Translations under genes and position numbers: made by a program | Assembly: GCA_963718895.1 (NCBI GenBank) | Contig: CAVRAG010000008.1 | Coordinates: forward strand, 544,001 to 608,000 | Reading direction: 5' to 3' | Source of the DNA: an uncultured Nitrososphaerota archaeon | GTDB taxonomy: Archaea > Thermoproteota > Nitrososphaeria > Nitrososphaerales > Gagatemarchaeaceae | Length of the DNA: 64,000 nt | Notes under the pieces: generated by a model | The model's database searches: none | Seen by the model: the letters and a program-made list of their open reading frames with translations, nothing else | Told to the model about the DNA's origin: nothing | Shown here: piece after piece, positions 1,026 through 30,788 of the stretch | Numbering within the stretch: the stretch's first letter is position 1 | Layout of the letters: each line of letters begins with the position of its first letter

Positions 1026-1218
1026 ACCCAGTATATCCTAAGTTACGTTTGGGATTGCTCTTACTCCACCCTCGACTTTCCGGTGACAATTGGCGCAAAT
1101 GAGAATACATTTGTCGAGTTCTGTTCTAATCGATTCCCACGATCTGATCATCCCCGTCTCAGATAACCCGAAACCTTTGGTCGCCTTGTCCAAATGGTGG
1201 AACTCCAGCGCGCCATTG

Positions 1219-1390
1219 TATCGATCGTATCCACATAGGGTTCTGTCAGGTCTTCGTCGGACGGCTCAGACCTGGCTTCGAGGCATCGACTCTGAGGATT
1301 ACCTGCTGTTTCCTGCCTTCAGGGTTCCCCTTCACCGCTTCAACTGCCCCGCCTTCTCCTCTTGACTGGGCGAACCTCACCCAGCCCCTG
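1219..1390 (-). ncRNA. Predicted omegaRNA (reRNA) overlapping the tnpB 3' end, running through the right TIR into the flank (candidate guide CTATGTGGATACGATCGATA)
   Basis: Nucleotide blocks conserved with 30285-30415 (TGAGGTTCG, AAGGCGGGGCAG, GGTGAAGGGGAACCC, GTAATCCTCAGAGTCGATGCC, CGAAGCCA, GACAGAACC), where no tnpB gene remains. The position is typical of TnpB guide RNAs; boundaries are approximate. Confidence 0.55.
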
Positions 1391-2581
1391 CGGGAGATGT
1401 TCATCACCGCGACCAGGTCGCGGTCATCCCACCGACCACACCTCTGGCACCACTGCTGCCGGTGATGCTGCAGATCACCGCGGACAGCCGCTTGGAGTCC
1501 CTCCCCGCATCGCGGACAGCCCGTCGTGGTGTCTCTTGTCTCCTTCACCGTGAGCGTGACCACCGGCACGCCCTCCCACGCCGCCTTGTACTCGACTTCT
1601 CTCTTCAGCTCGCCGAAGGGCCAGGAGTTCATCCTTCCCCTGAGTTCTCGACCCTGGAGGTTCTCTCTCCGGTACAGCTTCCTTAGGCCCCTGATCTCTT
1701 CGAAGACGATCGCGCGCCTGTCTCTCTTGGCTTCTTCCACGATGTGCTTCGAGACGCGGTTGAGGATCTGCCTGACCCGCTCCTGTCTCCTCCGACCGTA
1801 CTTGATGGCCAGCGGTCTCCTTACTCTTACATCGTTTCTCTTGAACGAGCGGATGATGCTCCTGGTGTTCTCCGCTATCTCCACCGCTTTCGAGATGTCG
1901 TAGTATGTGACCTTCCCCTCGTTCCCCGCCGTCACGTTTCGCAGGTTCCTATCGATGCCGGTGGCGTCAGTGACCTGGATCCATTCCACAGCCTTAGCGA
2001 TGCAGAGCGAGAGCGAGCTCTCCGTGACGGTAAAGGACCGAACGACGACGCCGGGCTGGGTTAGGATGCTGAGCGTGTGCGGAGTTAGAGGGACCTTCTC
2101 AAACTTACGTCTCCGACGGGCACGAGGAGGCCATCGCCATCGATTCTGAACCCATAGCATGATGTGAGCAGAGGCTTCGAGAGGTAGGGCCGCCTTGTGC
2201 GGAACCCCCGCCTGATGGATTTCCTTCTCGCCGCCAGGATGCCGGTCGCTTTCGAGATCGCGCAGAGCCGGTAGTACGACGGGATCTCGCTTCCGTACCT
2301 CCCGCTGAGATCTTGGTAGACGAGGAGCGGGAGCCTCTTCAGTGAATGCGCATCCTTCTCCAATCCTACCCGTATGCAGTCGTTGACCATGAGCCTGAAA
2401 GTTTCCATGAGGCCGAAGAGACGGAACGTAGGCTCGTGTCGCTGCTTGAGGGCCTTCCTGGCGACCGTTCCAGGTGCAAGAGCGGCGAGGCTCATGCGGT
2501 ATCAAGTAGGAGAACCATATAAGCACCCGGTTGCCGATCTATCCTGAGAGAACGTCACCCCGACGAAGACTTTACAGAGCC
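1239..2581 (-). mobile_element. Non-autonomous TIR element (IS6-like ends) carrying tnpB
   Basis: 22-bp imperfect TIRs (19/22): GGTTCTGTCAGGTCTTCGTCGG at 1239-1260 and the reverse complement of 2560-2581, GGCTCTGTAAAGTCTTCGTCGG. Flanks CCACATAG / CCAGATGG (6/8 direct repeat). No transposase inside. Confidence 0.8.
1246..2495 (-). CDS. tnpB: RNA-guided endonuclease TnpB (one frameshift near 2100)
   Basis: N-terminal ORF 2085-2495 plus C-terminal frame with RuvC-I GIDRN, RuvC-II VFEEI, Zn finger CPRC...CQRC and RuvC-III DRDLVAVMNI; TATA-like TTATAT about 25 bp upstream. Confidence 0.9.
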
Positions 2582-2630
2582 CCAGATGGTAAGAGTCAAA
2601 TATAGAAGAAAATGCCCGACGTCTTCGCTT

Positions 2631-2780
2631 GGCGTCGTAGCTCAGACCACGTTGGCGACAGCGTGTGGGGAAGCATGGTAGAACTCTGATAAAGAGCTCG
2701 CCAAAAGCAGCAGGCTGTTAAATCGCGCAGGACGCGATGCAAACACCTGTTGGTCGACCGTTCAAATCGGTCCGACGCCG
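2631..2780 (+). tRNA. tRNA-Asn(GTT) with three introns
   Basis: Acceptor GGCGTCG/CGACGCC, T arm GACCG-TTCAAAT-CGGTC, anticodon arm GCAGG-CTGTTAA-CCTGT. Removing ~2646-2673, ~2683-2706 and ~2721-2744 gives a canonical 74-nt tRNA. TATA-like motif at 2596-2604. Confidence 0.9.
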
Positions 2781-29641: not shown

Positions 29642-30113
29642 TCACCTTATGACCAGGACGGAGCAGTGTGCGTGGGAGACGACTCCGGTGGAGACGCTTC
29701 CGAGCAGGAGCTTCTTGAAGCCGCCCAGTCCTCGGGTCCCCATTACGATCAGATCCGCTTTCTCCCTCTCCGCGAACTCAACGATTGCGCCGACCGTGGA
29801 AGCGACAGGTTCGATTACCTCACCCCGGGCATCCACTCCGGCTTCCTTGGCAAGAACCAGCGCCGAGTCGATCGCGCGTCTTAGCCTCGGTTGTTCCGAG
29901 CTTGTAGTACTCGGTCAGGTCAGCCGGCGCGCCTGCCGGGCCGCTGAAAGAAAATCCAGGTGAGGCGACGACGCTTAGAACGACGACCTTTGCGTTGTAC
30001 GCGCGGGCAAGCTCGAATGCGATCTTGGCGGACCTCTCCGCCGACTTGGAACCGTCCACGGGCACTAATATCAAACGCGTCGTGATACCCTCGTTCGCCT
30101 TGGTTGCTTGCAT
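29642..30113 (-). CDS. uspA: Universal stress protein (frameshifted)
   Basis: ILVPVDGSKSA ... ADLIVMGTRGLGGFKKLLLGSVS...HAHCSVLVIR. Confidence 0.9.
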
Positions 30114-30166
30114 CCCAAACACCGTGCACCGCCGCCGGCCTGACGTATTTAAGGGAAGAAGGCGAA

Positions 30167-30415
30167 GGCTCTGTCAAGTCTTCGTTGGGTAAGGGTGGGC
30201 GCTTGAGTATGCTCTCAGCATGTTGTATCCGAGCAGTGAGGACGGGTCCCGGGCGAATCCGTCTGACCCATTGGCAAGATGGGCGGTTGAGGTTCGACCG
30301 TTCATTGAAAACAAGGCGGGGCAGGTGAAGGGGAACCCGACGCGGACCGTAATCCTCAGAGTCGATGCCCCGAAGCCAAGTCTTTTTGGTTACCCGACAA
30401 AGACTTGACAGAACC
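30167..30415 (+). mobile_element. 249-bp MITE with IS6-like TIRs containing only the omegaRNA-like region
   Basis: 26-bp TIRs (23/26): GGCTCTGTCAAGTCTTCGTTGGGTAA / reverse complement GGTTCTGTCAAGTCTTTGTCGGGTAA. Flanks AAGGCGAA / AAGGCGAG (7/8). Interior homologous to the tnpB 3' end at 1239-1385. Confidence 0.85.
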
Positions 30416-30524
30416 AAGGCGAGGATAGGAAAGCGCACTGCGGCAATGCGGGCTGTTCCATGGAGCGGTGACGGGGCGGCGTGTGAGCCTAACTTAAATA
30501 GAAGCGCCGCTGTCTCCCTTCAAT

Positions 30525-30788
30525 ATGAAGACCAGCCCCTTCGTCGGCACAAGTCAGCTCCAGCAGCTTGCAGTTTCAAGGTCGCTCGACGCGCCTGGCA
30601 TGAAGAAGAGGGTGGCTGAAGCGACCAGGCCTTTGGCTGTCAACATCTCTCTGGTCCAACCGGTCACCGAGACGAGCACAAAGCAGACGAGCTCCACCGC
30701 TCTGGATCAATCAAAGACTCTCGAGCAGGCCAATGCAGCCTCGCCGAAGGTGGGCTTCGGGCTTTCCAGCCAGTTTCTCGAGCTCTGA
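30525..30788 (+). CDS. Small hypothetical protein
   Basis: ATG about 25-30 bp downstream of TTAAATA; low-complexity S/T/Q-rich; no family recognised. Confidence 0.35.
   Translation: MKTSPFVGTSQLQQLAVSRSLDAPGMKKRVAEATRPLAVNISLVQPVTETSTKQTSSTALDQSKTLEQANAASPKVGFGLSSQFLEL

Follow-up and report, generated by a model that had tools for sequence, protein, structure and literature searches.

The window analysed here, that is, the whole stretch of 64,000 nucleotides, carries two mobile elements with terminal inverted repeats (TIRs) of the IS6 type, each of which lies beside a host gene that reads away from it. The first, element 1 (1239-2581, minus strand), is a 1343-bp non-autonomous element with 22-bp TIRs at 1239-1260 and 2560-2581 and a tnpB gene as cargo. 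This tnpB (1246-2495, minus strand) is apparently frameshifted near 2085-2100, with open reading frames at 2085-2495 and 1246-2526, and its frame ends within the right TIR. It matches the Pfam family Cas12f1-like_TNB (E 2e-13; TNB domain, RuvC-type family) and reaches 85.5 bits against NCBIfam guided_TnpB, which is under the cut-off of 100. The TIR of the left (GGC-type) end stops at 2581 and is followed by one copy of the target-site duplication (TSD), CCAGATGG (2582-2589), by a 6-bp spacer, TAAGAG (2590-2595, plus strand), at the position where a BRE would lie, and by the heptamer TCAAATA (2596-2602, plus strand), the TATA box of a tRNA-Asn gene that starts at 2631, 28 nt past the heptamer. 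The other copy of the TSD, CCACATAG (1231-1238), borders the right (GGT-type) end, and the duplication is imperfect, with 6 of 8 positions matching.

The tRNA-Asn(GTT) gene (2631-2780, plus strand) contains one canonical intron of 24 nt and extra non-canonical introns, and because of these several introns it is invisible to standard tools: no tRNA was reported at this site by plain ARAGORN run on the window or by Rfam run on 900-2900. When two or three non-canonical introns were removed by script, tRNA-Asn(GTT) was called by ARAGORN in 159,040 of 269,892 variants, a result that does not fix the exact intron borders; the top-listed forms start at 2631, and the gene has conserved counterparts in relatives. 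A further tRNA-like 5' segment was found at 998-1031 (and around position 805 of locus L231), 1632 bp upstream of tRNA-Asn and about 31 nt after a TTCATAT box; its first 16 bases are those of tRNA-Asn at 2630-2645 (repeat D2). The relative G012 has a similar pair of tRNA-like starts, 658 bp apart, and a downstream stretch, ...CTTACTCC...CGACT, is common to both. Judging from its sequence, the 998-1031 segment may be another multi-intron or split tRNA gene. Between this segment and element 1, a 51-aa ORF (1038-1193, minus strand) contains a C-x2-C-H motif, which we take to resemble a remnant of an HNH endonuclease.

At the second site, the plus strand reads TATTTAA (30146-30152), the spacer GGGAAG (30153-30158), the TSD AAGGCGAA (30159-30166) and a 249-bp MITE with IS6-type TIRs (30167-30415, plus strand), whose GGC-type end is at 30167 and whose right half resembles the tnpB 3' end of element 1. 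The second TSD copy of the MITE, AAGGCGAG (30416-30423), matches the first at 7 of 8 positions. Read outward on the minus strand, the duplication (30166-30159) is followed by CTTCCC (30158-30153) and by TTAAATA (30152-30146), the TATA box of uspA, whose ATG (30113-30111) lies 32 nt from the heptamer. The uspA gene (29642-30113, minus strand) encodes a universal stress protein, residues 1-94 of which match Pfam Usp (E 1e-9); its frame is broken once near 29830-29900, the C-terminal part being in another frame, and the break marks either a pseudogene or an assembly error. On the far side of the MITE, CTTAAATA (30493-30500, plus strand), conserved in the relatives G011 and G001, is the TATA box of a divergent neighbour gene (ATG at 30525) and is not used by the MITE. 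The inverted-repeat arms of both elements (1231-1260/2560-2589 and 30167-30192/30390-30415) were also recovered by an independent repeat search made without prior knowledge of them.

The same two promoters could be compared with relatives. At the tRNA-Asn locus, the positions of the spacer and of the TSD hold similar sequences (CAAAGG and CCAGAGC, respectively), and both are therefore native DNA; CCAAATA is found 27-28 nt before the tRNA in five relatives. At the MITE-free orthologous uspA loci of G011 and G001, TATTTAA lies at the same place. Since the heptamer is kept at the empty orthologous sites of both genes, it is a pre-existing host promoter element, as had been supposed in the original prediction, which described it as the TATA-like box of an outward-facing host gene.

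The MITE is short, non-coding, TIR-bounded and multicopy, with four copies of 249-257 bp and 86-100% identity in the genome. Three of the four have an 8-bp TSD (two perfect, one 7/8). The fourth, at C8:877640, has none, and no orthologous flank that would represent its empty site was found in 22 relatives. The right flank of this copy (L270 1596-1680; G000:C8:877895-877978) is a repeat of about 80 bp that also occurs at G000:C8:883492-883575 and in G001, and which may explain the missing TSD. When the whole genome was searched for the TIR with mismatches allowed, 19 matches were obtained, ten of which form five pairs, namely the four MITEs and element 1. A segment of about 45-50 bp in the MITE/tnpB 3' region (30324-30375, MITE positions 158-209 approximately) recurs, at 84-95% identity, dozens of times in this genome as well as in most genus relatives. 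In known elements, omega-RNA scaffolds lie in the 3'-end region of tnpB, and this repeat probably represents an omega-RNA core conserved within a large TnpB family.

The same 22-bp TIR was found in 52 stretches of public archaeal genomes (with titles including Bathyarchaeia, Nitrososphaeria, Methanosarcina, Methanoperedens and others; four are titled bacterial) and in at least 125 metagenome stretches, 80 of which were fetched. The identical TIR bounds autonomous elements of 2.3-3.4 kb that encode a DDE_Tnp_IS240 transposase. The transposases of these same-TIR elements match Pfam PF13610 (E 1e-14) and score 114-120 bits against NCBIfam transpos_IS6, just below the equivalog cut-off of 125. In complete elements they are 377-409 aa long, and their N-terminus comprises a SWIM finger (35 bits in L257) and an IS1-type Zn ribbon. 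The TIR, GGYTCTGTMAAGTCTTYGTYGG at both ends, has GG tips and a CTGTC/AAAG core rather than CTGTTGCAAA; GG tips and a cTGTt...caaa core are given for the IS6 family in the consulted sections of a review (PMC7986276). Perfect 8-bp TSDs flank 28 non-redundant elements, of which L240 and L244 may share ancestry. An ISL3 identity, considered on the grounds of a GGCTCT tip and an 8-bp TSD, was rejected, given that PF01610 has no match in the genome and that the autonomous relatives are IS6. A transposase model computed with AlphaFold2 from a 12-sequence alignment had a mean pLDDT of 58.7, with only residues 22-100 or so at 77-86, and a Foldseek search of the PDB with this low-confidence model gave no match at E<=0.001.

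The present assembly, which is 80.5% complete, holds only two weak transposase fragments and no intact copy, whereas transposase matches with E<=1e-8 are present in 19 of 22 genus relatives, several of them as full-length open frames without stops. Sequence comparison thus shows element 1 and the MITE to be non-autonomous derivatives of archaeal IS6-family elements, and, since only fragments occur in the assembly and intact copies in relatives, they are moved in trans by a DDE transposase. At L220, in a relative, the same TIRs enclose an intact TnpB of 415 aa and are flanked by a perfect TSD, so that the tnpB-cargo form must be regarded as a lineage and not as an accident.

The closest known system is that of the IS6/IS26 family insertion sequences, as treated in the consulted sections of two papers (PMC7986276, PMC6807381). 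The likeness lies in the GG-tipped TIRs, the CTGT..AA core, the 8-bp TSD and the DDE_Tnp_IS240 transposase of the autonomous relatives. The archaeal autonomous relatives differ in their size of 2-3.4 kb, most of them having extra ORFs, and in their transposases of 380-410 aa, which bear the N-terminal extension of SWIM and Zn-ribbon domains. Long Zn-finger IS6 forms are placed in Clostridia (clades h and i) in the same sections of the review, which also describe hybrid -35/-10 promoters and IS-targeted insertion for the family and mention no fixed-distance target motif, no promoter targeting and no tnpB cargo (PMC7986276). In L083 (approximately 578-629) and L257 (1706-1757), two IS6 copies were seen back to back, their inverted ends parted only by the 8-bp duplication, an arrangement that recalls the habit of IS26 of inserting next to an existing copy and that gives a hint of the cointegrate-forming transposition (replicative or conservative) of the IS6/IS26 family. 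With IS200/IS605-type elements, the present ones share the cargo gene of element 1, which belongs to the TnpB family, and the tnpB 3'-end region retained by the MITE. That group is marked by the absence of TIRs and TSDs, by subterminal hairpins and by TnpA-dependent insertion beside a TAM. The present elements, by contrast, are bounded by TIRs and 8-bp TSDs, contain no tnpA and are moved by IS6 machinery, and their A/T motif stands 14 bp from the element end.

The original prediction had placed both elements exactly 6 bp from a T(C/T)AAATA motif, with the same spacing and orientation at two independent sites, and had proposed a genome-wide alignment of the flanks of all copies as a check on enrichment of the motif at this offset. 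Direct reading of both flanks confirmed the distance, and the pattern was found to hold well beyond the window. In each of the five TIR pairs of the genome, the GGC-type end is accompanied by an A/T heptamer at one and the same offset (TATTTAA, TATAAAT, TATTTGA, TATTTAA and TATTAAG). A TSD-seeded scan of the genome added two IS6-type elements with other TIR variants, one of which, on C7, has TAAATAA at the offset and the other, on C1, has none. Thus six of the seven IS6-type elements in the genome show a TATA-like heptamer (TATWTAA when read towards the element) exactly 6 bp beyond the TSD, and all six face an outward gene or ORF start.

The analysis was then extended beyond this genome, to archaeal genomes and metagenomes that supplied 134 distinct element ends, with offsets counted from the first base of the TIR. 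An exact TATWTAA starts at -21 in 10 of these ends, compared with 0-1 at each of 38 other offsets; when one mismatch is allowed, the numbers are 20 at -21 and 0-4 elsewhere. An iterated PWM gave 39 of 134 ends, a count for which the matrix was trained at the very offset at which it was then applied, and the fixed-pattern counts are preferred. Among the 28 elements with perfect TSDs, the motif lies on exactly one flank in 18 (11 by the strict and 7 by the relaxed pattern), on both flanks in none and on neither in 10. Expressed per flank, it is present at -21 in 18 of 56, as against 48 of 2016 control flank-offset tests (2.4%; binomial p of about 5e-16). A chance resemblance could be entertained as long as the observation rested on two sites; this excess over the control refutes it, and we give it practically no credence. 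The logo at -21 to -15 reads T-A-T-W-T-A-A, or tTTAWATA in the outward direction, and a distance of 6 bp between the 8-bp stagger and TATWTAA corresponds to one of 5 bp between the stagger and the downstream octamer TTTAWATA, read as the gene runs. We regard the target rule itself, namely insertion at a fixed 6-bp spacing upstream of a TATA box, as very probably correct.

The rule is a strong preference and not an absolute one, since the motif is absent from 10 of the 28 perfect-TSD elements, from one MITE copy of G021 (L020) and from the C1 element of this genome. In a TIR subgroup represented by two loci, L287 and L288, the heptamer starts at -27 instead of -21, that is, 12 bp away and not 6. 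At L250 (2188-4748), the insertion sequence has a divergent promoter on each side, with TATA-like boxes (TTGATAG and TTTTGTA) only 20 bp apart, and it is 6 bp from both. The element end that faces the motif is only partly fixed. In the MITE/TnpB-derived family, the motif lies to the left in 8 of 9 copies, two of which (L215 and L216) had to be shifted by 1 nt by eye, and no copy has it at its right end. For autonomous copies, a fixed polarity was rejected, as the motif was found at either end: at 8 of 14 ends towards which the transposase gene reads and at 3 of 20 from which it reads away. Both arrangements of element ends relative to the motif occur in the genus.

Two further explanations bear on this register. 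If insertion were random and only harmless copies near promoters survived, the intergenic position of the surviving copies in these compact genomes would follow. Selection, however, has no way to set a single-base register, and the exact motif has one peak offset, with 0-1 occurrences at the 38 others; moreover, 18 of 28 elements have it on one flank and none on both, and the same register recurs across phyla. Selection as the only cause is therefore highly improbable. The original prediction had also offered the heptamer as a displaced TAM or target signal, which would here belong to the cargo TnpB/omega-RNA system and not to the transposase. The TAM of IS200/IS605 elements lies beside the left end, and here, too, element 1 and the 8 of 9 MITE/TnpB-derived copies have the motif at the left end, upstream of tnpB. 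This part of the prediction was nevertheless not upheld, because the same motif at the same offset accompanies IS6 copies that have no tnpB (L083, L255, L257, L251, L252, L258 and L283) and because the 14 variable bases between motif and element end prevent it from abutting a guide-matched target. The TSDs and TIRs, in addition, belong to DDE-type transposition and not to TnpA/TnpB chemistry, and we consider a TAM even less probable than selection as the only cause.

The archaeal box A has a TTTAWATA-like consensus about 25 nt upstream of the transcript start, and the outward logo tTTAWATA matches it. Genome-wide, start codons peak 20-30 nt after TTAWATA. At the 207 exact TATWTAA sites of the genome, the start of an ORF of at least 100 codons lies 12-70 nt away in the outward direction in 125 cases and in the inward direction in 61, the random background being 28%. 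This association is confined to exact sites: outward and inward starts accompany 60% and 29% of the 207 exact sites, 40% and 35% of the 2125 one-mismatch sites, and 31.5% and 33% of the 9786 two-mismatch sites.

The genes beside the insertions were inspected for 16 motif-bearing cases in the GC-rich genus. Twelve insertions precede a Pfam-matching start (a C2H2 protein among them only below the Pfam cut-off) or a tRNA, three precede ORFs without a family, and one has no ORF within 130 nt. In this genome the outward genes are tRNA-Asn, Usp, a TRAM-domain protein and three ORFs without a Pfam family; one outward ORF has no DNA match in relatives. In genus relatives they are SufB (G001, G012), TatA, a phosphoribosyltransferase, Fe-S_biosyn, the C2H2 protein mentioned above, ATP synthase subunit c (G007, G018) and aIF5A. 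Apart from the C2H2 protein, all of the named genes start 22-56 nt past the heptamer; for ATP synthase subunit c, one of the two insertions follows the 6-bp rule. Weaker cases in the genus are L254, with only a family-less TTG ORF, and L288, with no ORF within 130 nt. The original prediction that target choice is tied to archaeal promoters, with insertion just upstream of the TATA box, is thus supported by both the conserved heptamers and the outward starts.

For the mixed metagenome set, 9 of 33 motif ends have an outward ORF called with its start at 34-60 nt, as compared with 9 of 84 other ends (p=0.043, with a window that was picked after seeing the data). A cruder test of the coding strand of the flanks in the same set showed no difference, the motif ends having 20 outward and 11 inward and the others 51 and 31.

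The insertion sites show the following arrangement. The transposition machinery joins the element ends to the target with an 8-bp stagger, 6 bp from a TATWTAA heptamer that is the TATA box of a gene reading outward. Insertion leaves the core promoter native, together with the BRE position and the 13 bp that precede the TATA box, and the host gene therefore keeps its promoter. We propose, further, that the recognised target is not the bare heptamer but a promoter that TBP/TFB have occupied or bent; the transpososome would dock at the upstream edge of the TFB-BRE contact, as a prokaryotic counterpart of Ty3/TFIIIB-type tethering. Taken as a whole, with the TBP/TFB step included, this explanation appears to us about evenly balanced between right and wrong.

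The main alternative is direct reading of the A/T heptamer, and perhaps also of an AA in the spacer, by a DNA-binding part of the transposase (the SWIM/Zn-ribbon N-terminus or the catalytic core), which would place the cuts at a distance of 6 bp; promoters would then be hit because TATA boxes are the main carriers of the sequence, and selection would clear harmful insertions. The logo is indeed a defined sequence, and with 60% of the exact sites already promoter-like in the outward direction, reading of the sequence alone would yield mostly promoters. Many metagenome motif ends have no obvious outward ORF, the transposases possess extra N-terminal Zn-binding domains (SWIM and IS1-type Zn ribbon), and the 12-bp spacing of L287 and L288 would fit a different domain geometry. 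Against this, the heptamers that were used are often degenerate (TCAAATA, TTTTGTA, GTAAATA, CTTAATA), of kinds that are not enriched at promoters genome-wide, and yet all 12 insertions of the genus with a non-exact motif at the 6-bp spacing are followed outward by the start of an ORF or tRNA. These comprise four in this genome and those at L257, L258, L250, L251, L252, L283, L285 and L254; nine of them have a Pfam match (one below cut-off) or a tRNA. Direct reading of the heptamer by the transposase seems to us possible, although on the doubtful side.

The lean towards TBP/TFB rests, in the first place, on this discrepancy: only exact heptamers mark promoters, and still all twelve non-exact insertions precede starts. 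In the second place, the same orthologous promoters have been targeted repeatedly, which also speaks against a bare sequence signal. The sufB promoter was targeted in G001 and G012 by elements of opposite orientation with different TSDs, and the ATP-synthase-c promoter in G007 and G018 by two different IS6 subgroups; both promoters were thus targeted independently in different genomes. Third, the L283 transposase has no SWIM domain and its element obeys the same rule. This single case (n=1) tells against direct reading by the transposase and weakens the SWIM domain as a candidate target selector, and a shared host factor would be a simpler common denominator than a shared DNA-reading domain. 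Fourth, the spacer at motif ends has A at -4 in 69% and at -5 in 62%, which is what generic promoters show at the BRE position (A at -4 in 51% of the generic promoters of this genome). Finally, by the known geometry, the cut falls just beyond the point where TFB would contact the BRE.

Several points count against the TBP/TFB reading. Purifying selection would remove insertions within genes and between TATA box and gene, inflating the share of harmless upstream copies under any model, and the extra N-terminal Zn-binding domains of the transposase could read DNA directly. The weak link to ORF starts in the metagenome set, the null coding-strand test and the three of six ORFs of this genome without a Pfam family also weigh on this side. 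Within the target rule, we infer that recognition dependent on TBP/TFB has an even or very slightly better chance of being correct, and we judge direct DNA read-out as tentative, distinctly below an even chance. The broadest form of the proposal is that the TBP/TFB-promoter complex serves as a tether for archaeal IS6 transposases, with integration one helical turn before the TATA box, that this is common to very different IS6 lineages (with or without SWIM domains, from Nitrososphaeria to methanogens) and that it is used by MITEs and by hitch-hiking TnpB nucleases; we put it forward as conceivable, at somewhat less than an even chance. As a separate observation on the factors concerned, G001 has five TBP loci and about 11 loci with TFIIB repeats, and a tnpB lies directly beside one of the TBP genes (L261 2008-3228).

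Promoter tethering is known from retrotransposons such as Ty3 (through TFIIIB), Ty1, TRE5-A of Dictyostelium and Tf1 of S. pombe. These resemble the archaeal elements in integrating at a fixed short distance upstream of the transcription start, beside DNA bound by TBP and a TFIIB-like factor, and in leaving the promoter intact, a "safe harbour". They are, however, reverse-transcribing elements with retroviral-type integrases that are directed mostly to Pol III genes by an experimentally shown tether, whereas the archaeal IS6 elements are prokaryotic DDE insertion sequences found at ordinary archaeal promoters, with a tether that we only infer. A second parallel is Tn7, in which TnsD and attTn7 likewise tie insertion to a recognised sequence that lies to one side at a fixed distance, without harm to the host gene. 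Tn7 differs in having a dedicated target-selector protein, one site per genome and a strict orientation, whereas the archaeal IS6 elements have thousands of promoters as potential sites and an element end towards the motif that is only partly fixed. In full-text searches of the freely accessible literature, we found neither a description of TATA-directed targeting as a habit of the IS6 family nor one of a tnpB gene lying between IS6 ends.

Insertion sequences usually choose their targets loosely or by sequence alone. If the TBP/TFB reading is true, the archaeal IS6 elements would be the first prokaryotic counterpart of Ty3/TFIIIB-type targeting, and their insertion sites would form a natural map of occupied archaeal promoters. 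With a promoter rule of fixed register in archaea, the "safe harbour" strategy known from eukaryotic retrotransposons would prove to have arisen in prokaryotic DNA transposons as well, or to predate them. The rule explains how insertions are tolerated beside housekeeping genes such as those for tRNA, SufB, ATP synthase subunit c and aIF5A, and it provides annotators with a free marker of TATA boxes in uncultured archaea. It also offers a direct experiment, in which it is asked whether TBP/TFB can recruit other DNA enzymes. The tnpB-cargo derivative, for its part, represents an RNA-guided nuclease gene riding on a prokaryotic DDE transposon.
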